Positions 1 to 25,673 of a stretch of DNA of 64,000 bases are shown here, one piece after another. The stretch is from assembly GCA_964489535.1 (NCBI GenBank), contig CAZAZD010000005.1:895-64894 (forward strand). Reading direction: 5' to 3'. This DNA is from an uncultured Isosphaeraceae bacterium (GTDB lineage: Bacteria > Planctomycetota > Phycisphaerae > Phycisphaerales > SM1A02). Below the pieces are notes generated by a model. It did not search any database. It worked only from the letters and a program-made list of their open reading frames with translations, and had not been told where the DNA came from. Position numbers and translations under genes: made by a program. Each line of letters begins with the position of its first letter. Position 1 is the first letter of the stretch.

Positions 1-199
1 TTTCAAGAACGATTTTATCATCAGCCAAACCCATTTCAACAAGCACTTCGCCAATCAACTTGCGTTCATCGCATTTCCGTTGTTGTTCCAGTGCACAATC
101 AAGTTGCTCTTGCGACAAAACTCCACGACGCAACAACAATTGACCAAGTGGTGCTTGGGCAGAAATCGCGGAGGTTTGATTATCTTGTTGGGGGTTCAT
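1..199 (-). CDS. GspE/PilB/MshE-family secretion/pilus ATPase; only the N-terminal ~66 codons are present and the gene runs off the left edge
   Basis: Reverse-strand ATG at 199-197. It is absent from the ORF track because the ORF is truncated. My translation is MNPQQDNQTSAISAQAPLGQLLLRRGVLSQEQLDCALEQQRKCDERKLIGEVLVEMGLADDKIVLE, which looks like a T2SSE_N/MshEN helical N-domain. The start lies 7 nt downstream of the STAS gene stop. Confidence 0.6.
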   Translation of the reverse strand, partial: MNPQQDNQTSAISAQAPLGQLLLRRGVLSQEQLDCALEQQRKCDERKLIGEVLVEMGLADDKIVLE

Positions 200-206
200 T
201 CTTTGT

Positions 207-542
207 TTATGTAAAACTCCGTGCTGCTTGTTCTACTGATTCGTGGGTGCTAAATATGCGATTCAAGCGTGTCAATTCAAAAATGCGATCCACCGAGCTT
301 GGAACGGAAGCAAATCGAAGTTTGTTTCCGGCTCTACTCAGTTCATCGGACAGCCAAAGAAGCGACTCAAGACCAATCGAGTCAATTAACCCCAAGGACG
401 AGCAATCAAGAATGACGTTCGTGCTGAATTTTTCTACCTTTTCTCGGACATCACGTTGAAAACGATCGCTGTCATCCGTGGTTAAATCGCCTGTAATGCA
501 GATTACCGTTGCTGCACGATGTGATTCTGCTGTAATGTTCAT
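207..542 (-). CDS. STAS-domain protein (SpoIIAA-like anti-sigma-factor antagonist fold)
   Basis: 111 aa. ILDCSSLGLIDSIGLESLLWL...LRFASVPSSVDRIFELTRLNRIF is a typical STAS pattern. Its ATG overlaps the upstream stop as ATGA. Confidence 0.75.
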   Translation of the reverse strand: MNITAESHRAATVICITGDLTTDDSDRFQRDVREKVEKFSTNVILDCSSLGLIDSIGLESLLWLSDELSRAGNKLRFASVPSSVDRIFELTRLNRIFSTHESVEQAARSFT

Positions 543-2185
543 GCCGCTTTCCTTTCGCCAGTTATAGGACGACTTTCATTGAGGGCAGGGTCCAATGAAG
601 GGCGACCTGTCTGATGATCAACCATGAGTTGTTCCCAGTTTGAAAAATCAAGTTCAAAAAAGAGTTCTGCGAGCTCGGGATCAAACTGCGAGCCGACAAC
701 GCGCCTCATCTCATCAAGCACGGCATTGCGATTCATCGCATTGCGATACGTACGGCTTGACGACATCGCATCAAATGTATCTGCAAGAGAAATCATTCGC
801 GCAACAAGTGGAATATCGTTTCCAGCGATACCGTATGGGTAACCGCCACCAGAATACTTCTCGTGGTGGTGCAAAACGCCGCCAAGAATGTCTTCCATTT
901 GCGGAATGTCTTTAAGTATTTTCGCGCCGATTTCAGGATGCTTTTGAATTTCTGCAAACTCATCCTTCGTCAAGCCGCCCTTCTTTGTAAGTACATGCTC
1001 AGGAACTCCAATCTTGCCTATGTCGTGCACAAGCCCAGCGATTCGGAATCGGTCGACTTGATCAGCGTTCAAGCCCGCTTTTTCTGCGAGTTGTGAAGTT
1101 AATAATGCCACCCTTTGAGAATGACCACAGGTGTACTTATCTTTCGCATCAATGGAAGCAGTTAACGCTTCAAGCGTTCCAAAAAACGTTGCGCTTAAAT
1201 CTTCATATAAAAGTGCGTTTTCAAGGAAAATAGCGAGTTGTGACGCCGTTGCAGACAACAATTTAATGTCTACAGAGGATGCTTCTGAGTCATTCCCCTG
1301 CTTATTTGCTGCGACGAGGACTCCAATAACGTTTCCATCGCTCACAATTGGTTCAATAATCGTTGCCAGTCCCAAGCGGTTTGCAACAGAATCATCGCCA
1401 TGAGAAACGATTGGCGCCGCTTCGATATCGTTTGTGACCGAACGAACAACGTCCGATGCGTTGGTTGGTGCACTACCAGCAAAAACTAATTCGCTCCCAA
1501 TTCTCGGAAGACGATCACCTATGCGAAGTTGCACGCCAATCCATTCGTAGGGCAATGTTTGTAACAGTTCGTTGCATGCAAGTTCAACAAATCGCTTTGG
1601 ATGATTCACCGAATTCATACTTCCTGTAATGGTGTACAACAAATTTATTTCTTCGTACGAATCAGCAAGTTCTTGACCAACTGCATCCATTGTGTTTTGA
1701 TTCGTGTTGCTTGATGCCTGTGCATTCCACGCAAATTGGAACATCGATGCAATTCTTTGAACATCCTGAGTTGCAACTGGAGAAAGTGAATGCAACATAT
1801 CACGAACAACTGTTGTGTCCGCGCCGCTTGCTTGACAGAGCGCGTGTAAATATTCGCTTGTGCACAGCCCATCGGTAATTATCACACCGATAGCAAAACC
1901 ACCATCTCGCCGATTCTCTTTTCGTACTGGAACCAACCAAAGGCCTTGAAATGCCTCCGCTGGTTGTAGCGAACCTTGGCTGTCCCAGGTGGCAAAGTTT
2001 GAACTAACAGCAAGACGCACGAGTGGAGACGCTGTAAGCAAATCAACGAGCCAATCGCTTCGGTCTGTTGTGGTAAGTTTTCCCGTTTCGTCACAAAACA
2101 ACATCGTCATACCAGCATCATGGACCAACTTCGCAAGTGGCGAAGAAGTGTCACGGATTATTGATGTAAAGTTGTTAATATTCAC
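539..2185 (-). CDS. GAF-domain HD-GYP c-di-GMP phosphodiesterase
   Basis: Contains HDIGKIGVP...HHHEKYSGGGYPYG...SLADTFDAM (HD and GYP motifs) after a GAF-like region. I favour the GTG start at 2185, which overlaps the receiver-gene stop as GTGA. The ORF track extends to an ATG at 2242. Confidence 0.85.
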   Translation of the reverse strand: MNINNFTSIIRDTSSPLAKLVHDAGMTMLFCDETGKLTTTDRSDWLVDLLTASPLVRLAVSSNFATWDSQGSLQPAEAFQGLWLVPVRKENRRDGGFAIGVIITDGLCTSEYLHALCQASGADTTVVRDMLHSLSPVATQDVQRIASMFQFAWNAQASSNTNQNTMDAVGQELADSYEEINLLYTITGSMNSVNHPKRFVELACNELLQTLPYEWIGVQLRIGDRLPRIGSELVFAGSAPTNASDVVRSVTNDIEAAPIVSHGDDSVANRLGLATIIEPIVSDGNVIGVLVAANKQGNDSEASSVDIKLLSATASQLAIFLENALLYEDLSATFFGTLEALTASIDAKDKYTCGHSQRVALLTSQLAEKAGLNADQVDRFRIAGLVHDIGKIGVPEHVLTKKGGLTKDEFAEIQKHPEIGAKILKDIPQMEDILGGVLHHHEKYSGGGYPYGIAGNDIPLVARMISLADTFDAMSSSRTYRNAMNRNAVLDEMRRVVGSQFDPELAELFFELDFSNWEQLMVDHQTGRPSLDPALNESRPITGERKAA

Positions 2186-2592
2186 GCAGCATCTCGCTTT
2201 TCTGCACTTGCGCCCTGAACTGACGAGAGCAATTGTGCACATAATTCAGAAATCCCACGAGGACTAAATGGCTTGCTTAATACTTTGCGAACATTTGGTA
2301 TTTCTGTGTCGCTTGCCTCAAGGGTATGACCACGCGCAGTAAGCACAACTACTGGTATATGCGATGTTGCAGAGTCTTTTGATAGTGCAAGCGCGAACTC
2401 AAGACCATTCATGTATGGCATTTGCACATCTGTAATCACAAGATCGGGAGGGTTCATTTTTACTTGATGCAACGCATCTTCGCCATCAACTGCAGTTGCA
2501 ATATCGTAGCCACAGTTACGCAACTTCAGTGAGAGGACTTGCAAAATGTGTGCTTCATCGTCAACAATTAAAATAGAGTGCTTCTGTGTCAT
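2182..2592 (-). CDS. Single-domain response regulator (CheY-like receiver)
   Basis: ILIVDDEAHILQVL...DLVITDVQMPYMNGLEF...VVVLTA...KPF. The ATG at 2592 overlaps the kinase stop as ATGA. Confidence 0.9.
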   Translation of the reverse strand: MTQKHSILIVDDEAHILQVLSLKLRNCGYDIATAVDGEDALHQVKMNPPDLVITDVQMPYMNGLEFALALSKDSATSHIPVVVLTARGHTLEASDTEIPNVRKVLSKPFSPRGISELCAQLLSSVQGASAEKRDAA

Positions 2593-3875
2593 GCTGCCTT
2601 TCGTTGACCTCGCTCTGCTGGAATAGAAAACCAAAACTTTGACCCCATGCCCAATGTTGATTCCAAACCAATTTGCCCACTGTGGAGTGTTTCAATAATG
2701 TGTTGGCAAAGATTTAAGCCAAGCCCAGTACCTTTGGCAACATGTCGGTAATTCTCAATTCTAAAGAACTTATCAAACACTTTACCGGTTTGGTCTGGGG
2801 CAATTCCAAGACCAGTGTCCGACACCGAGAAGTGCAAACTGCGTGTCAAATTGTCGGTGTCTGCTGCAATTGTGATACGACCACCTTCTGGCGTGTACTT
2901 AATTGCGTTCGAAAGCAAGTTAACAATGACTTGATAAAGCATGTCGCCGTCGGCCACAACAGATAAATCGACATCTGCTATCTGCGATTGAATCTCAAGT
3001 TTCTTTTCATTTGCTTGTGGCTTCATGTTTGTCACAGCACGTTGAACAATCTCGGCAAAGTCCACCGATGTTCGGTCAATATGCATCAAGCCAGCTTCGA
3101 TTTGGCTTATGTTCAAGAGATTGTCAATCATTCGCTGAAGCCGCTGCGTTTCAGTTGTAATCACACTATAAAAATCTTGCCGAGTTGCTTCATCCTGAGC
3201 ATCGCCATCAACAAGCATTTCGATATATGCCGCAATGGAAGAGAGTGGAGTACGTAACTCGTGACTTGCTTTAGAAACAAAGTCACTCTTAAGTCGAGCA
3301 ATCTCCCTCTCTCGTGATAAGTCGCGAAGAACGGTAACAACTGCATGCATCGCTTCATCTTTATGACCAACTGATTGCAAATGCACTTCGTACGAAACCG
3401 TTTCGTCGCCATTCTTAATTTCTTGTTCGTAAAGTCGTCCTTCTTTTGAAAGACCACTGCGTGCATGAGAAATTGTTGCAGCGAGCTGGTGATCGGCTAT
3501 GACTTCTGTAAGTGGTTTTCCAGTAGCTTCGTTCGTTGAAACGGATAGCAGCCCAGAGGCAATTTTATTTACATGCAGTACTTCACCGTGTGCATCAACA
3601 ACTATGACGGCATCACGCAAGACATCAAACACTGCTTCAACTTGACGGCGGTGCGTGCGGTCAATGCATGTATGGATTTTTGCAGAGTCGAGCGCGCCAT
3701 TTGCTTCTTCTGCTTCTTGGTTCGCAAGGTACATTGCTGCAACCGCTGCGGACTCACGTGCCTTCCATTTCAATGCAATGAAAACCGCAACCACTGCTAC
3801 GACGGTTGTTACGGTTAGAATTGAAATTGAAATTGGGTCTGTAAACACGCGGCACCTTGGGTTGTTCCTACCCAA
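2589..3875 (-). CDS. Membrane-anchored PAS sensor histidine kinase
   Basis: N-terminal TM segment, a PAS-like region, the H-box SHELRTPLSSI, and HATPase N/G boxes (LLSNAIKYTP, DTGLGI, GTGLGL). Confidence 0.9.
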   Translation of the reverse strand: MGRNNPRCRVFTDPISISILTVTTVVAVVAVFIALKWKARESAAVAAMYLANQEAEEANGALDSAKIHTCIDRTHRRQVEAVFDVLRDAVIVVDAHGEVLHVNKIASGLLSVSTNEATGKPLTEVIADHQLAATISHARSGLSKEGRLYEQEIKNGDETVSYEVHLQSVGHKDEAMHAVVTVLRDLSREREIARLKSDFVSKASHELRTPLSSIAAYIEMLVDGDAQDEATRQDFYSVITTETQRLQRMIDNLLNISQIEAGLMHIDRTSVDFAEIVQRAVTNMKPQANEKKLEIQSQIADVDLSVVADGDMLYQVIVNLLSNAIKYTPEGGRITIAADTDNLTRSLHFSVSDTGLGIAPDQTGKVFDKFFRIENYRHVAKGTGLGLNLCQHIIETLHSGQIGLESTLGMGSKFWFSIPAERGQRKAA

Positions 3876-3889
3876 GTTGACGTACGCGT

Positions 3890-5101
3890 CTAAGGGGCAA
3901 GAGGGGAATCTTGAGTGACACCCACAATTGGCTGGCTTCCCTCAACCAGTCCAACGGGGTGTTGCTCAGCATCACCTTCGACCGAATATGTCGTCATATT
4001 CTGTGTAATTAGACTTTCTACGCGCAATTTTGCGCTTTTTGTATACGATTGAAGAAGTAAATCCAAGCCCTCAATGGTGTTATCGGACTGTGCTTTTGCA
4101 AACAATTGCTCTCCTCGAACAGCGTCTCCAGAGCGCAGAGCAACAATCCCTTCAAACAGAGGGCCCTCTGCAAATTCGGGTGCTAACTCGTTTATTTTCT
4201 TGCCACACAGAGCAACTCGATCATAGTCGCCCATCTCCCACGCGATGAATCCAAGGTCAACCCACGCGCCCGCGTCATCTGGCGTTTGTCTTGTTACTCT
4301 CAAGCAGATATCTCTACCCTGAATTTGCCGACCCGTTGCCGAGAGACATTTTCCCTTTAACCGCTGGAACGTGTACGACAACTCGCTTGTTTCTTGAAGC
4401 TGGGCAATGGTGTACAAACATTTTGCATACTCGCCAGCATTGAACTGCGCCGTTGCAAGTAACGTCAAGACTTCAGCATCATCATTACCGAGCAATCTTG
4501 AATCCGATATAAATTTCGATGCCTCTTTTGGATTACCTTTTCGCAAATGAATGTGCCCGAGCAATGCAGTAACTGCGGGTTGGTGCTGAAACTCTTTTCC
4601 TGCGGTGCTCAGAAGTTCTATTCCTTCATCAAGTTGTCCGAGTGCAGCGTGCGACTCAGCAGCAGCAAGTAAGAATTGTGGATGAGTTGGATTGCACTCC
4701 ATTGCTTTCTTGTAACACGCTAATGCTGGCACATCTTCTGACCATCGCTGGTGCAACACACCAAGAAAATAATGTGACTCTGCAACTTTAGAGTCTAGTT
4801 CTATAGACCGAGCAAGCGATTTACTCGCTGCGTCTAACCGATGCTGTTCGATTAAGACTCTTCCTCGAAGCAAGTGGTATTTCGCATTTTCTTCATACCT
4901 CGCAATCGCTGCATCGATAGTTTCAAGCGCTGCTTTAAGTTGCCCGACTTCAAATTGTTGCATTGCTTGTTGTGCTGCTAGGTCTGCATTTACTACGTCC
5001 ATTCTTTGGTGGGCGTTCGCACGTGCTATTTTTCCTTGCTTTGTCGGTCCAGCACAACCCGCGAGAATACACAATCCAACCATGACTGCAAAACGATTCA
5101 T
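3890..5101 (-). CDS. TPR-repeat lipoprotein (PilF/PilW-like candidate secretin pilotin)
   Basis: Lipobox LAGCAG at the N-terminus and multiple TPR-like repeats. Its start overlaps the secretin stop as ATGA. Confidence 0.7.
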   Translation of the reverse strand: MNRFAVMVGLCILAGCAGPTKQGKIARANAHQRMDVVNADLAAQQAMQQFEVGQLKAALETIDAAIARYEENAKYHLLRGRVLIEQHRLDAASKSLARSIELDSKVAESHYFLGVLHQRWSEDVPALACYKKAMECNPTHPQFLLAAAESHAALGQLDEGIELLSTAGKEFQHQPAVTALLGHIHLRKGNPKEASKFISDSRLLGNDDAEVLTLLATAQFNAGEYAKCLYTIAQLQETSELSYTFQRLKGKCLSATGRQIQGRDICLRVTRQTPDDAGAWVDLGFIAWEMGDYDRVALCGKKINELAPEFAEGPLFEGIVALRSGDAVRGEQLFAKAQSDNTIEGLDLLLQSYTKSAKLRVESLITQNMTTYSVEGDAEQHPVGLVEGSQPIVGVTQDSPLAP

Positions 5102-6813
5102 TGAACTACCTCTGCACTCATTTGTGCTGTTTGCGCTTCTCGATGCAGGAGTTTGCGAATCAAATCACGCTCCCACACTGATTCTTGTTCATTCGTTATT
5201 CTTTCCCGCAATCGAATCATTTCTGGTTGCTCAGTTGTATTGCGAAGTGACAGATTAGACCAGTACAGCGCCTTGTCCAAATCACCAATACGGTACGCAT
5301 TCAGCGCATCTCGATTGTAATTTGCAGTAATTTGATCTTTGCTAAAAGGCAATAATCCCGCACGAGCACCAACGCGAACTGATTCAACAATATCTAGCGA
5401 ATCTCTGCCTGCTTCCCAAAGACGTTCGTCAGGAATAATGGATGGAGTCAAGAGAAATATAATTTCTTCCTTTTCAACTTGGTCATCTTGTCCACGAAAC
5501 GCCGCTCCAAGGAGCGGGATGTCGCCAAGAAACGGAACTTGGTTGCGACCTATTGTTGTAGATTCTCTAAATAGTCCACCAAGAATAATTGTTTCGCCAT
5601 CACGACAGCGAACGTTCGTCATTATCTGTTGGGTGATTTCATCTGGAATCGATTGTCCTGCGTCTGTACGCAACGTTGCACTCGATACGTTTGGATGCAA
5701 CTCCATCCGAATCATGCCATCGGGTGAAATGAAGGGTCTGAATACTAATTGAATACCAGTATCTAAAAATTCAACCGTTTGCGTTGTGCTCGTATCCGTT
5801 TGTGTACTTGAAAGATAGCCAACTCTCGTGCCTATGAGAACCTCGGCACGTTGACGGTTCAAGCAAGTAATTCTTGGGCGGGCCATTACAGTCGTGTCAA
5901 CCACTTGGTCAAGTACTTTCAGGAATGCGCCAACATGATCTTTAATTATCCCCGCCTTTAATCCACCTGAAAAAGATGAAGAATCCGTTGCGCCTACTCC
6001 TGAAGTAACCGCTTCTATGTTTGTATCACCAAAAGTGCCAGAGATTACACTTTGTGCAGCCGATAGCGGACCACCCGCAATTCCTCCGATTTGAATATTT
6101 GAAAGGGCAGTAAAATCCACACCAAATTCATTGTCTTCGGTGACTTTCGTTTGGACAATTGTTGCTTCTACAACCACCTGTGCTGGCGGAGTATCTAATT
6201 CGGTCAGCAATAATGCGATTGTCTCTAAGTTTTCTGGGTAATCATTAATAACAAGTTTACTTGCCCACGCGTAACTATCTCCACCTCCATCAGTGAGAGA
6301 TGGTTGATACCCTGCTTCAACATCCCCTCGAAATGCCGCTTTGCCATTTTCAGAAAGAAGCGGTTTTACAAATTCATCTGCGTCTGCTGCTGATAAATAT
6401 TGCAACTCGTAAATGCGACTCTCGGTTTTACGTCTTGCTTTTTCAATCGTGTCCAATTCTTCAAGTGTATAGACATACACAAAGTTTCCTTCTTCAATGT
6501 AACCGAAGCCATTGACGCGAAGCACCGCATCGAGCGCTTCGTTAAACGTTACGTCGTACAAGTTTGCTGAAACTGCTCCCGTCACATTGTTTGATGCAAT
6601 AATGTTTTTACGGCTTTGAATCGCCAGCATTTCAAGTACTTGCACGACTTCGGTTTCATTGACAACAAGGTCAACAGTACCAAACTCGTCCATCACAACC
6701 TCTTCGCTTGCCTCTTGTGCGACAGATAGTGGTGTCAGAAAAAGAAGAGAAAATAATAATGCAGTGAGTGTTTTTTTCACGGGTGCGTCTCCATACGCGC
6801 ACCCACAACCCAT
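5098..6813 (-). CDS. Secretin (PilQ/GspD family) with a ~115-aa C-terminal extension
   Basis: Signal peptide and N0/STN-like domain. The secretin C-domain signature VPFLGDIPLLGAAFRG...EEIIFLLTPSII is present. Confidence 0.9.
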   Translation of the reverse strand: MGCGCAYGDAPVKKTLTALLFSLLFLTPLSVAQEASEEVVMDEFGTVDLVVNETEVVQVLEMLAIQSRKNIIASNNVTGAVSANLYDVTFNEALDAVLRVNGFGYIEEGNFVYVYTLEELDTIEKARRKTESRIYELQYLSAADADEFVKPLLSENGKAAFRGDVEAGYQPSLTDGGGDSYAWASKLVINDYPENLETIALLLTELDTPPAQVVVEATIVQTKVTEDNEFGVDFTALSNIQIGGIAGGPLSAAQSVISGTFGDTNIEAVTSGVGATDSSSFSGGLKAGIIKDHVGAFLKVLDQVVDTTVMARPRITCLNRQRAEVLIGTRVGYLSSTQTDTSTTQTVEFLDTGIQLVFRPFISPDGMIRMELHPNVSSATLRTDAGQSIPDEITQQIMTNVRCRDGETIILGGLFRESTTIGRNQVPFLGDIPLLGAAFRGQDDQVEKEEIIFLLTPSIIPDERLWEAGRDSLDIVESVRVGARAGLLPFSKDQITANYNRDALNAYRIGDLDKALYWSNLSLRNTTEQPEMIRLRERITNEQESVWERDLIRKLLHREAQTAQMSAEVVQ

Positions 6814-7343
6814 CAGCGGTGAGGGGACGCTATCGTGAGTTCATATCGGCGGTCTCCAGCCGAAATGATGACTGAACGCCCTAATACATCCGTTAGCCGC
6901 AGTGCATCCGGCACATCCTGCACAACCACAATATCGCCCTTTTGGATAACTCGACCATTGATCATGACCACTTTGCCCATGATTCCTTCAAGTGTTAAGC
7001 CAGCAATTATCTCTTGTTCTGCCTTGATTGTTGAATCTAGATAATGTGGCTTATTATTATCGGTCACTTTGTATTCGGTTGGGAATGCATTCCAATTGAT
7101 CGTGAAGGGATTCTTCGCTGGCTCTGTTTCCAAAAAAACAGGGACTGAGATTTTATCGGTAGTTGCAAGTACTTGAACCGATGCCTCTATAACCGGATCT
7201 GCGACAGCTGTTCGCGGCGGTCTCGCGATAACAATAATCCTTGCCCAAAGGAGCAATCCAACAAACAAAAGCGTGCAAAACAAACCAAAACGTCTTCGGT
7301 CCGCTGTTAAGCGTTGCCAAGTTAATCTCATTTTTTTATTCAT
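6813..7343 (-). CDS. PilP/GspC-like membrane-anchored pilus/secretion assembly protein
   Basis: One N-terminal TM helix. C-terminal LTLEGIMGKVVMINGRVIQKGDIV resembles the PilP/GspC HR beta-domain. It sits between the PilO-like and secretin genes. Confidence 0.45.
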   Translation of the reverse strand: MNKKMRLTWQRLTADRRRFGLFCTLLFVGLLLWARIIVIARPPRTAVADPVIEASVQVLATTDKISVPVFLETEPAKNPFTINWNAFPTEYKVTDNNKPHYLDSTIKAEQEIIAGLTLEGIMGKVVMINGRVIQKGDIVVVQDVPDALRLTDVLGRSVIISAGDRRYELTIASPHR

Positions 7344-7903
7344 TTCTGTGCACTCCCACTGTCGTACATAGCGTGCAACCCTATCGCTGCTTCAAGTACT
7401 GGCAGGTCGCCATTGTTTTCAATGTCTTTTGACGTGATTCGTAACGATGAAACACGAATAAACCTGTTCATTGATTCGACATTATGTATGACTGAAAAAA
7501 TAGAATCAAAATCTGCGTGTAGTGTTACCGCAAGTGGCTGGATTGAGAATCCTCCACCTTGCTCTTGTTTTGACGAAGAAGCTCCTGCGGTAAAACTTTG
7601 ATCAAGTACGTATTGCCCGTCAACCTCCAGCGACAGTGCCTTCACTATTTGTGCTGTATCTGGAGAAGTTAAAACACGCTTGCACTCTGATTCTGCTTGC
7701 TTTTCAAGGGCAAGAAAATCTTGGTGCATTTTTTGAACTTCAACTTGGCGGCGTTCAAGTTGCGTAATTCTATTTTCCAATTCAAGCGCACTAGAAGATG
7801 CGTTTGTAACGTTTTGATAGTTTGGAACTATAAAGAAACAAACAAACAATACCGTTAATACAAACGCGCCAAACAACAGCCAACGCTCACGTGATGCAGT
7901 CAT
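7340..7903 (-). CDS. PilO-like assembly protein
   Basis: TM helix plus coiled coil (LELENRITQLERRQVEVQKMHQDF) plus a C-terminal ferredoxin-like region. Gene order supports the call. Confidence 0.55.
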   Translation of the reverse strand: MTASRERWLLFGAFVLTVLFVCFFIVPNYQNVTNASSSALELENRITQLERRQVEVQKMHQDFLALEKQAESECKRVLTSPDTAQIVKALSLEVDGQYVLDQSFTAGASSSKQEQGGGFSIQPLAVTLHADFDSIFSVIHNVESMNRFIRVSSLRITSKDIENNGDLPVLEAAIGLHAMYDSGSAQK

Positions 7904-8496
7904 TCTTCACCTCCAACGACAATCAAGCGGGAAACTTCCCATTGACTTTCTAAATCGATAAGAAAACTCACTCTGAATTCACGTGCACGCATTCCTCGAA
8001 CAGTACGCGACTTGCTGTAGTCCATGGACACTGATCCGAACGGTGCTTGCGTTTGCAGTGTTGAAACAAGTGACGCAATCATTTCGTCTGTTGCCGCGAA
8101 ACCAGCAAGGCGGCCACTTATCCCTTTCCCGTCTTCTGTTTGCACAATATCAAGAGATATATCTTCTAGAGTCATTGACTCTGGAAGCATATTTGTAATG
8201 GTAGACACAATATCTCCCATTGCAAATGTAATCTTCTCTTTGTCATATCTATCAATAAAAGATTCAAGGCGTGCCTTTTTCAACTCCAGCGAAGAAGCAT
8301 CGATTTCAAGTTCAAGCGCACTGTTTGCTCGAGTTTGCATAACGATGAGATGCTCCACAGCTGCGTTCATAGAGAGCCGCGAGTGTGTTGCAACTGCTGC
8401 AACTGCGCAAAGTGTAATTATTATGGCAACTGCAACACGGTTGCTTCTTGCTTTGTTTTTGCTTCGCTCAATATATTGATCAGGCAATAAATTCAT
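7900..8496 (-). CDS. PilN-like assembly protein
   Basis: N-terminal MNLLPDQY (the conserved INLLP-type motif), then a TM helix and a coiled coil. Coupled by ATGA overlap to the PilM-like gene. Confidence 0.65.
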   Translation of the reverse strand: MNLLPDQYIERSKNKARSNRVAVAIIITLCAVAAVATHSRLSMNAAVEHLIVMQTRANSALELEIDASSLELKKARLESFIDRYDKEKITFAMGDIVSTITNMLPESMTLEDISLDIVQTEDGKGISGRLAGFAATDEMIASLVSTLQTQAPFGSVSMDYSKSRTVRGMRAREFRVSFLIDLESQWEVSRLIVVGGEE

Positions 8497-9563
8497 GCTG
8501 CATCCTTTATTACGATGTCGCTGTCGCTTCGGCGTCTTTGCTGTTGCATGCTTACTAAACTTGCACCAAGTGCAACATGCCAGCCATTGGAGTGGATAAC
8601 CCCACTAGGCAATGCTTGGATATGGGGAACATCCCTGTCCGAAACAACCTCTTGGCTACACGATGCCTTGAGCACATTTGCTAAATGTGTATTCCATCCA
8701 GAGTTTCCAGTCACAATTAAGTGTGTAGAAAGTGGCCCTCGATTTGTCACGCCGTAATGTCGAGTGCATTTCATAACGTCCGTTGCAATCGCTTCGTGTG
8801 TTGCACGTGTTGCATCTCGAACAGCTTTGCTGATATCTAAATCTACTGGCTCATTTTGAGAAACCATGAGCATTCGTTTTGCTTGCTCTATTGTTACGTC
8901 TGTATGCGATGCGATTGCTTCAATTAAATTCGATCCGCAGTGTTCAAGGTGCTTATAAAAAACTAATACATCTCCAGCAAGAACCATAAACGAAGAGTCG
9001 TACAAACCAAAATCCAGCACAGACCGAACGGTAGATTGATCGCTTTGGCGTCTGTGCAACATGCTTAATGTTCGAGCAACGGAAACACAATACGGTTCAA
9101 TGGCGGTTGGCCGAAGTCCCGATGCATACAGTGGATCTAGTAAACCAGAGAGTACTTGATGGTCGATTGCAATAGCAAGTACATCGCCACCAGTTCCAAC
9201 AGGAATCGCATCAAGTTGCAGGGTTGAGCGTTCTACTCCAAGACGATCAACCAGTTCCCAAGCGGCGGCCTCTTTGAGTTCTTCTTCGCTCATGTTTGGA
9301 AGTTGCAACACTTGGTGATGGGCAATTGATGGCGGAAGAGATAGCACACAATCTGAACCCGTCATTCCAGTTTGATTGATGTGTGTTTGCCAACATCCTG
9401 CAGTAAGATCCCGAGGGTTAACATCTATTCGTTTTACAATAGGATGTTGGTAACCACCATTTTTCCAAGAACATTGACCAATAGTTACACCGCCATCGTG
9501 AAATGCGATGCCAATTTGACCTTTTGTGTTTTTCTTTTTTGAAAACATCTTAAGGAGAACCAA
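8493..9563 (-). CDS. PilM-like actin-fold pilus assembly protein
   Basis: 356 aa with an IGIAFHDGGV start, an LIVTGNSG late motif, and a position upstream of the PilN-like gene. Confidence 0.7.
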   Translation of the reverse strand: MVLLKMFSKKKNTKGQIGIAFHDGGVTIGQCSWKNGGYQHPIVKRIDVNPRDLTAGCWQTHINQTGMTGSDCVLSLPPSIAHHQVLQLPNMSEEELKEAAAWELVDRLGVERSTLQLDAIPVGTGGDVLAIAIDHQVLSGLLDPLYASGLRPTAIEPYCVSVARTLSMLHRRQSDQSTVRSVLDFGLYDSSFMVLAGDVLVFYKHLEHCGSNLIEAIASHTDVTIEQAKRMLMVSQNEPVDLDISKAVRDATRATHEAIATDVMKCTRHYGVTNRGPLSTHLIVTGNSGWNTHLANVLKASCSQEVVSDRDVPHIQALPSGVIHSNGWHVALGASLVSMQQQRRRSDSDIVIKDAA

Positions 9564-10137
9564 CTTTTGTTACTGTTACTTTTCCTGTAAATGGCGCAAG
9601 TTGCACTTGCCATGCGTGCTCGCCACTGTGCACTTCAAAACTTCCACCGGTACTCGGCGAACCGTCTGGCGCAATGATCCCTCCAGTTTGATCAAAAATG
9701 ACACCTGTGTTCGCACCATCAAAAAGTGCCGAATCGATGGACAAGTTCTTAAAACGATTGTCTTGATTGAAATCGATGTATGTTGTTTGACCGTGCCCCT
9801 GTGATTCAGATTCGTCATCTGCGTACAGTGCGGTTGCGGAATTGTACGGTGTAGAAAGTTGACTACTGTTGAGAACTTCAACACACCAACCGCATCCATC
9901 TGAAAAAAAATGAATACGACGAAACTCTTGATTCGCAACTGCGTCCATTTGTGCTGCGAGTATGTCCGTAACCGCGAGCCGAGTTGCTGACTGTCCTGAT
10001 GCAGAGGCACCAGAACTTGCTTGAGGAACGAGCACAATTGCTGCTATTGCAAGAACGGTAATCGTGGTGAGCAACTCGACATACGTCCATCCTCGTCGGC
10101 GAACAGATAATTGTGATGTGGCATTATTCTTCATCAT
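9550..10137 (-). CDS. Minor pseudopilin (GspH/FimT-like) with prepilin N-terminal methylation motif
   Basis: RRRGWTYVELLTTITVLAIAAIVLVP shows a G/W cleavage site, Glu at +5 and a hydrophobic helix. Confidence 0.75.
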   Translation of the reverse strand: MMKNNATSQLSVRRRGWTYVELLTTITVLAIAAIVLVPQASSGASASGQSATRLAVTDILAAQMDAVANQEFRRIHFFSDGCGWCVEVLNSSQLSTPYNSATALYADDESESQGHGQTTYIDFNQDNRFKNLSIDSALFDGANTGVIFDQTGGIIAPDGSPSTGGSFEVHSGEHAWQVQLAPFTGKVTVTKVGSP

Positions 10138-10320
10138 TCTTTACTTAACCCAAAGCGGGTCAATGGCTTGCATCGGGCGATTTCCTACCCAACACAAGCC
10201 CATCCCCCGATTTCTCGCTCACTGAACCGTCCACTTCACGTTATCGGACCACACCATCTCCTCTGAGACGAAGGTCGAATCAAATTAATTCCTCGGAGGA
10301 ATTGTTTTGGTACAAACATA

Positions 10321-10352
10321 GCGGGGCAGATGACCTCCATCATCTGCCCCGC
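10321..10352 (-). terminator. Strong hairpin 40 nt downstream of the major pseudopilin gene (candidate terminator/attenuator)
   Basis: GCGGGGCAGATGA-cctcca-TCATCTGCCCCGC is a perfect 13-bp stem. No clear U-tract follows it. Confidence 0.45.
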
Positions 10353-10394
10353 TTGTGGGGTAGTAACTGCCCGAGGTGGTAGGGAATTGATTAC

Positions 10395-10814
10395 TTATTC
10401 TGAGAACTCGGTACCGTCCGCGGCGACACCGTAAAGACATTTTGTGGTATTTGTTGCACTCTTATCGCGCCAAACCCAGCCAACGCCTGAAGCGGCTGCA
10501 GCGGCTACTGTTGAGGATGAGGAAAGTGGATTACTTGGTGAACCCATCAAGTAATCGCCATCAATCATGTCAGTCCATCCAGTACCAAGCAGGTCCGGAT
10601 CCCCTGAATTTTGTGCTCGATAAAGCTCAATTTGCCCTCGAAGTGTTTGCAATTGACTGCGAATTGCTGCGTCATTTGCATCATCTGCGGCATTGGTAAA
10701 TTGCGGTACTACGACTGCAGCCAGAATGCCAAGAATGACGACCACAATCAGGATTTCAATCAGTGTAAATCCACGTCGAATGATGTTTGTGTTTGTTGTG
10801 GTGAGTGTGTTCAT
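10395..10814 (-). CDS. Major pseudopilin (GspG/PulG-like, prepilin-type N-terminal cleavage/methylation domain)
   Basis: The internal ATG at 10814 gives MNTLTTTNTNIIRRGFTLIEILIVVVILGILAAVVVPQF. The upstream part of the 197-aa ORF looks non-coding. Confidence 0.85.
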   Translation of the reverse strand: MNTLTTTNTNIIRRGFTLIEILIVVVILGILAAVVVPQFTNAADDANDAAIRSQLQTLRGQIELYRAQNSGDPDLLGTGWTDMIDGDYLMGSPSNPLSSSSTVAAAAASGVGWVWRDKSATNTTKCLYGVAADGTEFSE

Positions 10815-11097
10815 ACGTTTGTTCCCTTTGTAAGCAATCAGACATGGATTGCGGGGCTTGGGTGACTTGATCGAAATCACGGCGATTTCGAACCTCGGGG
10901 TTCCTGCTGCCATCCTAGCGGCGGGATTGCAACAATTTTTTCCTGAGCCATGCTCTTCCTGATGGCCAAGGGCGTTGCTGCTTATCAATCATCGGTGGAA
11001 AAGCGGGGCTAAAATAAACTGTTTCATTGAAGCAAACAAGAGAAGCGTGGATAACCCAACTTCCTTTCCTATCTTCTCAATTAGGTACACTCCCCAC

Positions 11098-12333
11098 ATG
11101 TCAACACTACGTATTAGGCCGTTTCATGCTGTTCATCCAACGACTTCAGAAGCAACTCGAGTTGCTTCAGTGCCATATGACGTTGTCAATCGCGAAGAGG
11201 CAAGGAAAATTGGTCAAGAAAACGAAGATAGTTTCATCCACGTCGTCAGGTCAGAAATTGACTTAGACCCAGATACATCCCCCTACGATGAGGCTGTGTA
11301 CACCAAGGCAAAAAATAACTATGAACGGCTTTGCGAAATTGGTGCGTTAGTAAAAGACAAGGAGCCTTCGCTCTACTTATATAGACAGCGCATGGGAGAC
11401 CATGACCAAGTTGGGCTCGTCGCATGCTGCCACGTTGACGACTACAACAACAATCTCATCAGAAAACATGAGAAAACTCGACAAGTCAAAGAAGACGACC
11501 GAACAAACCATGTTCTCGGAATCCACGCAAACTCTGGTCCAGTATTCCTTACGTATCGCGGCAACAGAACCATTGACGTCCTAGTCGATGATGAAATGAA
11601 CAAACGACCGCTCTTTCATTTCGTTGCTGACGATGGTGTTATGCACACTGGCTGGCGGGTAAAAAACCAAGATGATCTGTTAAAAGCGTGCGAGGAGATA
11701 CATCTTGCCTATGTTGCAGATGGCCACCACCGTAGTGCCAGCGCAGCCCGAGCGGCTGTTGCATTACAAAAGCAAAATCCAAACCACGATGGCACCGAAG
11801 AATACAACTGGTTCCTTACGGTTCTTTTTCCCGCTGACCAATTGCATGTTTTGCCCTACAACCGCGTTGTGTTTGACCTTCACGGAAACACTCCAGAAGA
11901 GTTCCTTGCAAAACTTGAAGAAGTTGGGTCCATCACGAAGACAGAAACACCTTCCCCAAGTTCCTCTGGCTCATGCTGCATCTACCTTGGCAAAGATTAC
12001 GGCTGGTTTCAATTTGAGTTCAAAGACATCGACACTACCGATCCAATTGCGTCACTTGATGTTGACTTGCTTCAAAAACGTGTGCTATCACCCCTGCTTG
12101 GGATTGGTGATCCACGAAGTGATACGCGCATCGATTTCGTGGGCGGCATCCGAGGGACAGAAGAGTTGGAAAAACGAGTCGATGAGGGCAATGTGGCCAT
12201 CGCATTCTCGATGTATCACACAACCATCGAGCAATTGCTCGATGTCGCAGATGCAGACCTCGTCATGCCACCAAAATCAACTTGGTTTGAACCCAAGTTG
12301 CGCAGCGGGCTGTTTGTACACGAACTGAGTTAA
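11098..12333 (+). CDS. DUF1015-family protein
   Basis: The ATG at 11098 gives MSTLRIRPFHAVHP...VASVPYDVV...LYLYRQ...GLVACC...HEKT...DR. This fits my memory of the DUF1015 N-terminal pattern. Confidence 0.75.
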   Translation: MSTLRIRPFHAVHPTTSEATRVASVPYDVVNREEARKIGQENEDSFIHVVRSEIDLDPDTSPYDEAVYTKAKNNYERLCEIGALVKDKEPSLYLYRQRMGDHDQVGLVACCHVDDYNNNLIRKHEKTRQVKEDDRTNHVLGIHANSGPVFLTYRGNRTIDVLVDDEMNKRPLFHFVADDGVMHTGWRVKNQDDLLKACEEIHLAYVADGHHRSASAARAAVALQKQNPNHDGTEEYNWFLTVLFPADQLHVLPYNRVVFDLHGNTPEEFLAKLEEVGSITKTETPSPSSSGSCCIYLGKDYGWFQFEFKDIDTTDPIASLDVDLLQKRVLSPLLGIGDPRSDTRIDFVGGIRGTEELEKRVDEGNVAIAFSMYHTTIEQLLDVADADLVMPPKSTWFEPKLRSGLFVHELS

Positions 12334-13424
12334 TGATTCGCTGCGAACGTTTCTAGAAACTCGGCAAACCGTGCACAGCCCTCTTCTGGAAATGCGTTGT
12401 ATACAGATGCTCGCAAACCACCGAGATTGCGATGCCCCTTCAGTCCAGACATACCCTGTTTTGCTGATTCTTCAAGGAACAAAGCATCGAGCTCTGGGGT
12501 TTTCGTTTTGAACGAAATGTTCATTCGAGACCGGCAACATTCGCGTGCAAACGTTGTGTAAAAATTGCTGTTTGAATCAAGCGCATGATAAATCATCCCC
12601 GCCTTGCGTTCGTTTCGGTCTTCTATTTCTTGCAAGCCGCCTTCTGCCAAAATCCACTTGAACACCTGCCCCATCAAATAGATACCAAATGTTGGTGGAG
12701 TGTTTAAACAAGAGTTTTTAGCTGCGATTGCTTTGTAATTCAACATAAGAGGCAAGGTGTCGGAACATTGTTCAAGCATCGTCTTTCGGATAATAACAAG
12801 CACCGTACCCGATGGACCAAGATTTTTTTGTGCGCCAGCATAGACCATGCCAAACTTTGACCAATCAATTGATCGAGAGAAAATATCCGAACTCATGTCG
12901 CATATAACTGGAGCATCGCTCGTTGGAACACTCGCAAATCTCGTTCCATAAATAGTATTGTTTGTGCAGTAATGCATATATGCCGCACGATCAATCGCTT
13001 GAATTTCGTCCTCTGAGGGGCAATGGTCGTAATTGCATTGCGAACCATCAAATGCAAGATGCACGTTGCCTATTTTTTTTGCTTCTTTAATTGCTTTGCT
13101 AGTCCACACTCCAGTATCAAGGTAATTCGCAGTTTCATCCTCACCTAAAAAATTCATCGCAAGCATTGCAAATTGAAGCGTTGCGCCGCCTTGCATAAAG
13201 AGAACTTCAAAATCATCTGGAATATTGCCGACTGTTCTACAATCAGCAACCGCTTCATCTATAACTCTATCAAACACTGGACCGCGGTGGCTGTGTTCGC
13301 AAATTCCAATTCCACTTCCTGCAATGTTCCAAAGGTCACCCTGGGCTTGCTGTAGCACTGGTTCTGGCAATGTTGCTGGTCCTGCAGAGAAGTTAAGAAT
13401 ACGGTCGGTAGTGGTTGTAGTCAT
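12330..13424 (-). CDS. serC: Phosphoserine aminotransferase
   Basis: ILNFSAGPATLPEPVL..., the YAGAQKNLGPSG PLP-lysine region and a length of 364 aa. Confidence 0.95.
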   Translation of the reverse strand: MTTTTTDRILNFSAGPATLPEPVLQQAQGDLWNIAGSGIGICEHSHRGPVFDRVIDEAVADCRTVGNIPDDFEVLFMQGGATLQFAMLAMNFLGEDETANYLDTGVWTSKAIKEAKKIGNVHLAFDGSQCNYDHCPSEDEIQAIDRAAYMHYCTNNTIYGTRFASVPTSDAPVICDMSSDIFSRSIDWSKFGMVYAGAQKNLGPSGTVLVIIRKTMLEQCSDTLPLMLNYKAIAAKNSCLNTPPTFGIYLMGQVFKWILAEGGLQEIEDRNERKAGMIYHALDSNSNFYTTFARECCRSRMNISFKTKTPELDALFLEESAKQGMSGLKGHRNLGGLRASVYNAFPEEGCARFAEFLETFAANH

Positions 13425-13433
13425 AGTATTACT

Positions 13434-14702
13434 TTATGTGTTGATAGTTGAAACTGCGACAGACAACACGTTGTCGTTGTCGCGTATTTTTTCAATTTGT
13501 TCTGCTGTTGGCATTTCGCCAAGTTGTATTCTTGCACATGCTGCCTCTGCGCCTTCGTAGATTATATTTTCCATCTCTTCCACATTGATACCGGTGTGGC
13601 TAATTGATTCAAATATATGCGCTAGCACTCCAGGTAAATTTAAATGTCGAATAGATAACATTGCTTGCGCCGGTGTGAACTTTGCTCTGTTCACACAGTT
13701 TGGAACTTCGCCACTCTTTATGTACGTTTTAATAATTCGAACTGCCTCCATTGCAATTGCATCTTGCGCTTGTTCCGTTGAGGCACCAACATGGTGTGTT
13801 CCATACACAAATGTCTGCTTCACGATCTCAGGAGAAAACTCAGCATTTCCGGACGAGGGTTCATTTTGATACACATCGAGTCCAACGCAAAGATTTTTTT
13901 CGCGTGCAGTTTTTACAAGCGCCTGTTCATCAATGACCTTGCCTCGACTTGTGTTAATAAGCATGGCACCATTTTGCATCGCATCCAGAAATGTGGCGTC
14001 GATGATATGCTCCGTTTCTGGCGTTGAAGCAAGGTGAATAGAGATTACATCTGACATTTTTGCCAAATTGAGCAAACTGTCACATCTATTGATTCCTAAT
14101 TCAGCAGCAATCTCATCGGTGAGCGATCTCGACCACGCAATAATATTCATCCCGAATGCTCTCCCGCGTCTAATCACTTCTTTTCCAATACCACCAAGAC
14201 CAACAACGCCAAGTGTTCGGCCATGCAAGCCCTTTGCCTTGGAATACTCTTTTTTATTCCAAGAGCCATTTCGCAAATCAGCGACTTGATCTGGAACTTT
14301 TCGATCGCAAGACAAAATGAGTGACCACGCAAGTTCCGCAACGGCAATGGAGTTTTTATTTGGGCAATTTGCAACAAAGACGCCGCGTTTTGAGGCTGCT
14401 GCAACATCTATGGTGTCATATCCAGCCCCCGCACGGACAATAACACTGAGGCGCTCAGAAGCATCCATCATTTCGGAGGTGACTTTTGTAGAACGAACGA
14501 CAAGAACGTCTGGATTCGTTGCTGCAATCGCTTCAACCAATGTGTCCTCTTTCAATGATGGGTCCAACACAATTTCGCACCCGCACTCTCCAAGTGCATC
14601 TAGTCCCTGGTCGCGAAATGAATCCGCAAGAAGAATAACTGCTGATGGAGCATTGCTCGCACAATCATATTGCGCACATTCCATAGTTTGGTTTGACATC
14701 AC
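13434..14702 (-). CDS. serA: D-3-phosphoglycerate dehydrogenase with C-terminal ACT-like domain
   Basis: 2-hydroxyacid dehydrogenase fold, GVVGLGGIGKEV NAD loop, and adjacency to serC. Confidence 0.9.
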   Translation of the reverse strand: MMSNQTMECAQYDCASNAPSAVILLADSFRDQGLDALGECGCEIVLDPSLKEDTLVEAIAATNPDVLVVRSTKVTSEMMDASERLSVIVRAGAGYDTIDVAAASKRGVFVANCPNKNSIAVAELAWSLILSCDRKVPDQVADLRNGSWNKKEYSKAKGLHGRTLGVVGLGGIGKEVIRRGRAFGMNIIAWSRSLTDEIAAELGINRCDSLLNLAKMSDVISIHLASTPETEHIIDATFLDAMQNGAMLINTSRGKVIDEQALVKTAREKNLCVGLDVYQNEPSSGNAEFSPEIVKQTFVYGTHHVGASTEQAQDAIAMEAVRIIKTYIKSGEVPNCVNRAKFTPAQAMLSIRHLNLPGVLAHIFESISHTGINVEEMENIIYEGAEAACARIQLGEMPTAEQIEKIRDNDNVLSVAVSTINT

Positions 14703-14716
14703 CGCATTTTATCAAT

Positions 14717-15184
14717 TTATGCGCAAAGTTTCAGCGCTAATTGCTTTGTTGCATCATGAATTAGAGAGACCACGTGTTCAAACCCATCTTCCCCACCATA
14801 ATAGGGGTCTGGTACTTCATTCAGTGTGGCGTGTTCAATATAAGGCAATAACATTTTAGTTATTTCTGGTTTTGCTCCCATGCCCAGCACATCATCAAGA
14901 TTGTCTTGGTCCATGCAAAAAATCCAGTCAAAGATAGAAAAATCCCCAACAGCAATTTGCCTTGCACTCCCTGAAATCACAAGGCCCTGTTTTTTTGCTG
15001 CTATTCGCATTCGCCTGTCCGGCTTTGCTCCAACATGCCATCCACCTGTTCCTGCAGAATCTATTTCAAAAGCATGCCCATGCCCCATCGTTTCTATTGC
15101 ATCCCTAAAAAAACATTCTGCTGCAGGCGATCTGCAAATATTTCCCATACATACAAACAACACTTTTGTTGATCCGTTTTTCAT
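14717..15184 (-). CDS. Low-molecular-weight protein-tyrosine phosphatase
   Basis: VLFVCMGNICRSPAAE (the CX5R-S P-loop) and a DPYY Asp loop. Confidence 0.9.
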   Translation of the reverse strand: MKNGSTKVLFVCMGNICRSPAAECFFRDAIETMGHGHAFEIDSAGTGGWHVGAKPDRRMRIAAKKQGLVISGSARQIAVGDFSIFDWIFCMDQDNLDDVLGMGAKPEITKMLLPYIEHATLNEVPDPYYGGEDGFEHVVSLIHDATKQLALKLCA

Positions 15185-16449: not shown

Positions 16450-16455
16450 AGTATT

Positions 16456-18639: not shown

Positions 18640-18656
18640 AACGCTACATTCCTTAA

Positions 18657-23774: not shown

Positions 23775-23787
23775 TTATTCACGGCTC

Positions 23788-25563: not shown

Positions 25564-25673
25564 TCACTCTCAAGAAGAATCAGGGCTTTAATATGCACCC
25601 TAAATCAACTCCAAAAGTACGAAATCAGCCCATCCTATGTTCAACAAAGATGCAGTTTCTAGCAAAGGTTGCA

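Follow-up and report, generated by a model that had tools for sequence, protein, structure and literature searches.

The 64,000-nucleotide (nt) stretch analysed here (contig CAZAZD010000005.1, assembly GCA_964489535.1; hereafter the window) comes from an uncultured bacterium, a marine member of the Phycisphaerae (Planctomycetota). At its left end lies the distal portion of an assembly operon that resembles those of type IVa pili. Twelve genes, all on the minus strand and separated by gaps of at most 41 nt, follow one another in the transcription order pseudopilin-PilM-N-O-P-secretin-TPR lipoprotein-PAS histidine kinase-receiver-GAF/HD-GYP-STAS-PilB. A preliminary description of the window had placed four signalling genes between the secretin and TPR genes and the gene of the assembly ATPase, and Pfam confirms each domain that it named. 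These genes encode a histidine kinase of 419 amino acids (aa) (2589-3848; Pfam PAS, HisKA and HATPase_c), a stand-alone CheY-like receiver of 136 aa (2182-2592; Pfam Response_reg, E 3e-23), a GAF/HD-GYP protein of 548 aa (539-2185; Pfam GAF and HD/HD_5, with HD_5 at E 2e-38) and a STAS protein of 111 aa (207-542; Pfam STAS, E 3e-17). Of the pilB/gspE-type ATPase gene, which begins with the ATG at 199, the window contains the 5′ end with the first 66 codons (1-199) before its edge cuts the gene off. The kinase gene overlaps the receiver gene by ATGA (2592..2589), the receiver gene overlaps the HD-GYP gene by GTGA (2185..2182) and the HD-GYP gene overlaps the STAS gene by ATGA (542..539), exactly as had been described for 2589-2592, 2182-2185 and 539-542. 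The STAS and ATPase genes are 7 nt apart, and the widest gap of the run, 41 nt, lies between the TPR and kinase genes. No strong terminator-like site was found within the 12-gene run. With these short gaps and no such site inside, the signalling genes belong to the pilus operon, as had been proposed.

The long operon begins with a prepilin-like gene (9550-10137), encoding a minor pilin or pseudopilin with the N-terminus ...RRRGWTYVELL, whose position is kept in relatives. PilM (8493-9563; a weak match to TIGR01175 pilM), PilN (7900-8496; Pfam PilN), PilO (7340-7903; Pfam PilO) and a PilP-like protein (6813-7343) are encoded by genes linked through start/stop codon overlaps, in an order conserved in 26 genomes. 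They are followed by a secretin of the PilQ/GspD type (5098-6813; Pfam Secretin, E 3e-41), which scores 225.8 bits with TIGR02515 PilQ and 204.9 bits with GspD, both under the cut-off. The TPR lipoprotein (3890-5101; 403 aa, MNRFAVMVGLCILAGCAG) has the lipobox LAGC and matches Pfam TPR families; its matches to the PilW and Tgl models are weak and under their cut-offs, and it resembles the PilF/PilW/Tgl secretin pilotins. The pilin gene itself (10395-10814, minus strand) precedes the run and encodes a class III signal (…IIRRG/FTLIEIL…; Pfam N_methyl, E 1.4e-7); a 139-aa product was called for it on contig L001. Directly 3′ of the pilin gene and before the prepilin-like gene, a minus-strand hairpin of 15 pairs, nine of them G-C, occupies 10320-10353. 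It is probably a terminator or attenuator that divides transcription of the pilin from that of the assembly operon. A hairpin directly after the pilin gene is the usual layout and combines high pilin expression with read-through into the assembly genes.

The type IVa components seen are the pilin with its class III signal, PilM/N/O/P, the secretin, the PilB-type ATPase and, in relatives, the platform protein PilC. The ATPase, platform protein and secretin score about equally against type II secretion system (GspE/F/D) and type IV pilus models, all below the equivalog cut-offs, and the type IVa pilus is favoured because PilM/N/O are present. The cluster and the examined flanks contain neither a PilT retraction ATPase nor a prepilin peptidase. 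Positions 1-12000 gave no match to any Rfam family, c-di-GMP (cyclic di-GMP) riboswitches among them.

At the gene junctions 539-542, 2182-2185, 2589-2592 and 8493-8496, the upstream products (HD-GYP protein, receiver, kinase and PilM) all terminate in -(K/D)AA. This shared ending arises because the last codons, GCN GCN TGA, contain the ATG or GTG of the next gene. A purine-rich stretch precedes the recurring stop/start junction, and the -AA ending is kept in orthologues of the HD-GYP protein.

The kinase consists of an N-terminal hydrophobic segment followed by PAS, HisKA and HATPase_c domains. Gene callers assign it the 419-aa product that starts with the GTG at 3848, and the open reading frame (ORF) stays open to a TTG at 3875. 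Its boxes SHELRTPL (H-box), NLxSNAxKYTP, DTGLG and GTGLGL are at least 90% conserved among 27 sequences. The receiver retains DDE, D.QMP, TARGH and KPFSPR, which hold its DD, D, T and K residues, at no less than 90% conservation in 27 orthologues. Receiver and HD-GYP protein, whose genes share the GTGA, are encoded by separate genes in all relatives as well. The GTG start of the HD-GYP gene is supported by the orthologues, because these start with ATG at the aligned position. REC-(PAS/GAF)-HD-GYP regulators, in which REC is the receiver domain, are known in fused form; since its gene overlaps the HD-GYP gene, the receiver here is probably the detached receiver of such a regulator.

The HD-GYP protein comprises an N-terminal alpha/beta domain (about aa 13-135), a 50-residue helix (139-190), a GAF domain (196-326) and the catalytic domain. 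The Pfam GAF match reaches 24.9 bits (cut-off 22.4), and a GAF-like fold is seen at aa 196-326 in an AlphaFold2 model, which has a mean predicted local distance difference test score (pLDDT) of 75 and is confident in the N-terminal alpha/beta domain (pLDDT about 90). With this model Foldseek returned PmGH, a GAF-HD-GYP protein, as its top match (E 5e-13). The GAF and HD-GYP parts dominate a search with the whole model, in which nothing beyond a PAS/GAF-like tandem layout is indicated. As modelled, the layout resembles tandem-GAF phosphodiesterases and phytochrome sensor modules. The N-terminal domain had no match in Pfam or NCBIfam. Residues 1-165 (window 1691-2185) gave 37 matches among 1.84 billion representative proteins, all of them at the N-terminus of the same protein family, whose full-length members have 540-564 aa.

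The preliminary description had called the HD and GYP motifs of the phosphodiesterase intact, and the conservation of the catalytic residues bears this out. H355, H387-D388, K391, H416, H440-H441-E442, G448-Y449-P450, D469 and R478 are invariant in 43 orthologues and align with those of PmGH (4mcw) and V-cGAP3 (5z7c). They comprise the HD motif, the further His/Asp ligands that complete a two-metal set, the substrate Lys and the HHE and GYP motifs. At the D/N position of HHExh(D/N)GxGYP the window protein has Ser, and the orthologues have D, A or S. In PmGH the Glu of the N-terminal loop (E185) binds the third metal and marks the trinuclear class, which hydrolyses its substrate to GMP. Here the aligned residue is Tyr (DAKDKYTCGH versus KDPETQNH of PmGH), as in V-cGAP3. 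With Tyr instead of the third-metal Glu, the enzyme is therefore predicted to be, and probably is, of the binuclear class, of which pGpG is the likely product.

The ATPase fragment in the window reads MNPQQDNQTSAISAQAPLGQLLLRRGVLSQEQLDCALEQQRKCDERKLIGEVLVEMGLADDKIVLE and spans motif I of an MshEN domain (aa 17-40), a 7-aa spacer and most of motif II (aa 48-71). Contig L001 lengthens the protein to 364 aa and includes the Walker A sequence GPTGSGKST. Homologues at up to 96% identity, those with a named source being from Phycisphaerae, Phycisphaerales or Planctomycetota metagenome-assembled genomes, have 571 aa with PF05157 (MshEN/T2SSE_N) and PF00437 (T2SSE). Recovery of the whole ATPase, which the preliminary description had called for, thus succeeded for 364 aa from the sister contig, the full length being known from these relatives. 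We sought a complete same-strain copy in the five places listed for contigs that encode the identical STAS protein, and none of them supplies it: each stops within or just before pilB, and the longest yields the 364 aa. L001, L002, L003 and L005 break 216-1092 bp into pilB, within its first 1.1 kb, and L004 ends before the gene. These breaks suggest strain-level variation or a repeat that defeats assembly.

The closest solved structures to the ATPase are the Geobacter and Myxococcus PilB proteins. In phmmer alignments, aa 16-154 match the N-domain of Geobacter PilB, and aa 17-128 match MshE (5htl) and PilF GSPII-B. The N-domain alignment over aa 16-154 takes in both halves of the MshEN fold, including the second, whose absence would have spoken against the earlier proposal. 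An AlphaFold2 model agrees, with a disordered segment (1-17), helices at 18-24, 30-42, 49-55 and 61-71 and then an alpha/beta unit. The proposed MshEN reading therefore stands in so far as the protein is a genuine MshEN and T2SSE ATPase of the PilB/GspE type; the motif match that had been offered for it is insufficient to establish c-di-GMP binding.

Wang et al. 2016 print the MshEN motif as RLGxx(L/V/I)(L/V/I)xxG(L/V/I)(L/V/I)xxxxLxxxLxxQ. Motif I, PLGQLLLRRGVLSQEQLDCALEQQ, fits at 23 of 24 positions. Of two mismatches listed earlier, P for R at position 1 holds and is the only one, and V after the Gly is allowed in the motif as printed there. This P lies outside the strict and extended consensus and inside the relaxed search motif of the same authors, which permits P at position 1. 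Motif II, LIGEVLVEMGLADDKIVLETLAQA, follows after the 7-residue spacer and has A at position 24, where their relaxed set is [QNKRYWST], with A and G outside it. The clade pattern was taken from distant loci and from those homologues (92 of 120) whose two motifs could both be parsed: motif I begins with P or Q and ends with Q, the spacer has 7 residues, and motif II begins with L. At position 24 of motif II the 92 homologues have A (66), G (21), S (4) or T (1), and Q in none. In one further homologue (P0015), KKKKK replaces the end of motif I (…DSAKKKKKNCDERK…), probably through a sequencing or assembly error and not as biology.

The terminal Gln of each MshEN motif hydrogen-bonds the ribose and phosphate of the ligand, and guanine is recognized by backbone amides, those of the conserved Gly and of the residue after it. 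The hydrophobic residues that stack on guanine and both Gly are kept in both motifs here. PilF GSPII-B, with K and L at its first motif positions, binds c-di-GMP with a dissociation constant of 6 nM, which extended the consensus to (R/K/L)LG, and L or K at position 1 leads to higher affinity (PMC11731258); the L at the start of motif II agrees with this consensus. PilF GSPII-C, also a binder, has P at a motif start and a 7-residue spacer (PMC11731258). We considered whether P17, L48 and the 7-aa spacer rule out binding and rejected this reading, as all three occur in binders. Two non-binders serve for comparison: XpsE, in which Q61V is among eight changes, and PilF GSPII-A, whose site is blocked by an N-terminally extended helix 1. 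A block of the latter type seems absent here, because helix 1 of the model starts at L18, directly after P17. Binding of c-di-GMP by PilB, perhaps with lowered affinity, is plausible.

NCBIfam NF053729, a model of the 53-residue c-di-GMP motif, gives the ATPase 48.5 bits (cut-off 38). Non-binder PilF GSPII-A scores 55.3 bits, and binders and canonical PilB proteins score 52.0-68.3. The model does not discriminate, since GSPII-A falls within the range of the binders, and it was rejected as a predictor of binding on this calibration, in which the non-binder outscores the ATPase.

The STAS protein passes the anti-sigma-antagonist model TIGR00377 (58.9 bits, cut-off 53.45). Its family profile matches TM1442, SpoIIAA and RsfB, and the best PDB matches are TM1442 and SpoIIAA, with whose DS(A/S)G its DSxG motif aligns. 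D54-S55-x-G57-L58-E59 and W63 are invariant in 120 of 120 family members, S55 being the phosphorylatable Ser. The suggestion that it is a partner-switch element finds no local support: an RsbW-type kinase and a PP2C phosphatase are absent from the operon and from the called genes of three flanks. More broadly, neither an RsbW/SpoIIAB-type Ser kinase nor a PP2C turned up in the operon, in the Pfam scan of window ORFs or among the genes called in L001-L010; such enzymes could be encoded elsewhere in the genome. The most likely role of the STAS protein would be that of an adaptor or switch with either PilB or the HD-GYP protein as its partner, and phosphorylation of Ser55 may govern the binding.

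Synteny was called by searching the ORFs of each locus with the proteins of the window. The three PilB homologues used as seeds, which are 96, 79 and 69% identical to the fragment, lie in the same gene order (3/3 loci). A scan with patterns derived from the STAS family, run on a GTDB r232 database with one genome per species, found 26 species-level genomes or loci, all of them Phycisphaerae/Planctomycetota metagenome-assembled genomes, with STAS identities from 83% down to 37%. The order pseudopilin-PilM-N-O-P-secretin-TPR-HK-REC-HDGYP-STAS-PilB-PilC (HK, histidine kinase) is present in 26/26 loci and incomplete only at contig ends; the STAS-seeded scan is blind to clade members without the module, for which the PilB-seeded look-ups (3/3) partly compensate. 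STAS is directly upstream of pilB in every locus long enough to contain both, and the PilC/GspF platform gene follows the ATPase gene in the loci of relatives. The HK-RR-HDGYP-STAS-ATPase synteny (RR, response regulator), whose conservation had been left to be checked, is kept in every relative examined. Database searches returned 397 matches for the STAS family and 267 for the N-domain plus GAF half of the HD-GYP protein; this family and the N-terminal half appear confined to this clade. The conserved arrangement suggests on-site nucleotide control of pilus assembly, in which the motor would bind the nucleotide.

With moderate confidence, we read the four genes as a candidate module for local, post-translational control of the pilus motor, built in just upstream of the ATPase gene. 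The PAS domain of the kinase would sense a cytoplasmic or membrane signal, leading to phosphorylation of the receiver. The receiver may then target, in trans, the sensor half of the HD-GYP protein, as in a split REC-(PAS/GAF)-HD-GYP regulator, and the GAF and N-terminal domains would supply a second, ligand-dependent input. Once active, the HD-GYP enzyme would deplete c-di-GMP beside the machine, its product probably being pGpG. PilB would read the nucleotide through its MshEN domain, so that pilus extension would track local c-di-GMP; this step is the weakest, because motif II lacks the terminal Gln. The STAS protein, made beside PilB, may be the adaptor or switch on PilB or the HD-GYP protein described above.

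Several observations weigh against this proposal. The ligand-contacting terminal Gln of motif II is missing in all 92 parsed homologues and in the distant loci, and measurable binding by GSPII-A was reportedly regained only when both Gln and the Arg at the start of motif II had been restored. The ATPase scores lowest of the NF053729 test set, below the non-binder GSPII-A. A search for a diguanylate cyclase among the larger ORFs of the window (64 kb) and the ORFs of 36 fetched loci found no GGDEF-type motif. The need for a STAS protein is unexplained, a Ser kinase and phosphatase being absent locally. Finally, among PDB sequences the HD-GYP domain is best matched by V-cGAP3, an enzyme specific for 3′3′-cGAMP (cyclic GMP-AMP).

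The last of these points raises the question whether the messenger is 3′3′-cGAMP or another cyclic dinucleotide, degraded by a V-cGAP-like HD-GYP enzyme, with the altered motif II reflecting the ligand. For the catalytic domain, V-cGAP3 of V. cholerae gives E 1.5e-36 and PmGH 4.5e-31, and the segment DAKxxYTxGHSxRV is common to V-cGAP3 and the protein here. cGAMP is hydrolysed by some HD-GYP proteins, and weak binding of cGAMP by VcMshEN is given by Wang et al. 2016. However, the E-value gap is small and no cGAMP-specific residues were identified, both Gly for guanine recognition are kept in both motifs, and no cGAMP synthase (Hypr-GGDEF or DncV-like) was seen nearby. We consider a change of messenger very unlikely.

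The main rival to c-di-GMP gating takes the loss of the motif II Gln differently. Control would operate by protein contacts, the MshEN domain being a docking surface and not a nucleotide sensor: the STAS protein would bind and switch PilB, and the HD-GYP protein (as enzyme or c-di-GMP sensor), the phosphorylated receiver or both would decide whether STAS is free. The Gln is missing clade-wide in a domain that is otherwise highly conserved, and STAS lies 7 nt upstream of pilB and adjoins it in all loci that show both. The apparent confinement of the STAS and HD-GYP families to the clade is what is expected of co-adapted partners. STAS-only proteins with outputs on non-sigma targets are known, such as SypA and BtrV, and in FimX-PilZ-PilB it is an adaptor that connects the N-terminus of PilB with a protein that binds c-di-GMP. 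The STAS contacts on which this scheme turns are themselves predictions, though; full retention of the stacking residues and of both Gly would be hard to explain for an unused nucleotide site, and an HD-GYP protein with every catalytic residue favours hydrolysis over a pure scaffold. Control by contacts is, in our judgement, possible and somewhat unlikely.

A further form of regulation can be put forward tentatively, at a probability clearly below that of local nucleotide control. The STAS protein would be a direct regulator or adaptor of PilB that tethers active HD-GYP protein to the MshEN domain, giving a self-contained HD-GYP-STAS-PilB unit under two-component control. If so, action of STAS on PilB would be a new output class for STAS proteins, and the unit would be an HD-GYP counterpart of FimX-PilZ-PilB confined to Phycisphaerae.

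It may also be asked whether the signalling genes control PilB at all. They could be co-transcribed passengers whose target is, for example, the global c-di-GMP level or the neighbouring exopolysaccharide/exosortase locus: in the window, exosortase and polysaccharide-export genes are found at a distance of 5-17 kb, and HD-GYP enzymes often act on the global pool. Against this, the site of insertion (between the pilotin gene and pilB) is conserved down to 37% STAS identity, as are the 4-nt overlaps. The flanks past pilC vary among the three PilB-seeded loci, and the exopolysaccharide locus is not kept beside the operon, the downstream neighbours in L006, L008 and L010 being different. A passenger role therefore seems improbable, and local control of the pilus motor remains the reading that we prefer.

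The exopolysaccharide/exosortase locus occupies 14717-27386 on the minus strand. It encodes a low-molecular-weight phosphotyrosine phosphatase (14717-15184), a GT4 sugar transferase (15181-16449), a 727-aa protein with a weak AAA_31 match that is possibly a chain-length determinant/tyrosine kinase (16456-18639), a 1705-aa TPR protein (18657-23774), exosortase EpsH fused to DUF3485 (23788-25563) and a Poly_export/SLBB exporter (25674-27386). Between it and the pilus genes lie a plus-strand gene for a DUF1015 protein (10975-12333), divergent from the pilin gene, and minus-strand genes for a class-V aminotransferase (12330-13424) and a 2-hydroxyacid dehydrogenase with an ACT domain (13434-14702), a pair that looks like the serine-biosynthesis genes SerC/SerA. 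Two large proteins with DUF7133 and GSDH-like beta-propeller matches are encoded at 41879-44344 and 50845-53835; in the second, HEAT repeats and a cytochrome c domain at the C-terminus are present as well. Large proteins of this second type are common in Planctomycetota.

Each part of the pilus module comes from a known family, and second-messenger control of a type IV pilus ATPase is already known. Four features are undescribed in the literature searched: the fixed HK-REC-HDGYP-STAS insertion between the pilotin gene and pilB, the split receiver/HD-GYP pair, the family-specific N-terminal domain, and a STAS gene directly upstream of pilB. Searches on STAS with PilB, on Phycisphaerae with pili and c-di-GMP and on HD-GYP with STAS returned no description of this arrangement. 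The earlier impression that it was new agrees with this, as we found no paper describing an HK-REC-HDGYP-STAS-PilB operon. Control of type IV pilus motors by c-di-GMP is established, and the enzymes that set the signal are usually encoded elsewhere. A sink, a two-component input and a STAS protein fixed clade-wide beside a receptor-bearing ATPase make a compact and testable candidate for local signalling, with a possible new role for STAS-only proteins. The clade also lends itself to asking, on a natural example, whether motif II can do without its terminal Gln when the motifs begin with hydrophobic residues. Pili are important for the attachment of marine Phycisphaerae to particles, and since the organisms are uncultured, inference at the level of the operon is the main handle on their behaviour.

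Among known systems, MshE of V. cholerae and PilF of T. thermophilus share with the ATPase here a four-helix bundle and alpha/beta subdomain fused to a T2SSE ATPase, and two 24-residue motifs in tandem, in which both Gly and every hydrophobic stacking residue are present. Motif starts with P (GSPII-C) and L (GSPII-B) and the 7-aa spacer (GSPII-C) are likewise found in PilF binders. Unlike in MshE and PilF, the terminal Gln of motif II is A, G or S across the clade, and binding here is a plausible proposal. To our knowledge, c-di-GMP enzymes are not encoded beside the ATPase gene in Vibrio or Thermus. The phosphodiesterase CdgJ, for example, is reported to act on MshA pili from elsewhere (PMC4624765).

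Dedicated c-di-GMP enzymes beside a single effector are known from E. coli, in DgcJ with the MshEN domain of NfrB and in DgcC/PdeK with cellulose synthase. In these local modules, one of whose effectors is an MshEN domain, the output follows the local and not the global pool. The E. coli enzymes are of the GGDEF/EAL type, whereas here the enzyme is an HD-GYP protein and only a sink, and no source, is encoded nearby. Local action by HD-GYP proteins has rarely been reported.

For the STAS protein, the nearest parallels are BtrV of Bordetella (type III secretion) and SypA of V. fischeri (syp), which are also single-domain STAS proteins with a conserved phosphorylatable Ser, encoded inside the locus of their presumed target. 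As with those two, the presumed output here is not a classical sigma factor. The BtrV and SypA loci encode Ser kinase/phosphatase partners (BtrW/BtrU and SypE), unlike the locus here. In the FimX-PilZ-PilB system of Xanthomonas, pilus biogenesis is controlled through the N-terminal part of PilB, on which a c-di-GMP-domain protein (FimX, a degenerate GGDEF-EAL protein) and a small adaptor act. The locus here differs in having an intact HD-GYP protein, STAS in place of PilZ and genes within the pilus operon, and the corresponding interaction is only proposed. RpfG-type or REC-(PAS/GAF)-HD-GYP regulators and PmGH are comparable in the two-component input to an HD-GYP domain and in the GAF domain directly upstream of it. 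Unlike in RpfG, the receiver and the HD-GYP domain are on two polypeptides, whose genes share 4 nt; unlike in PmGH, Tyr replaces the third-metal Glu; and unlike in either, the HD-GYP protein carries an extra, family-specific N-terminal domain.

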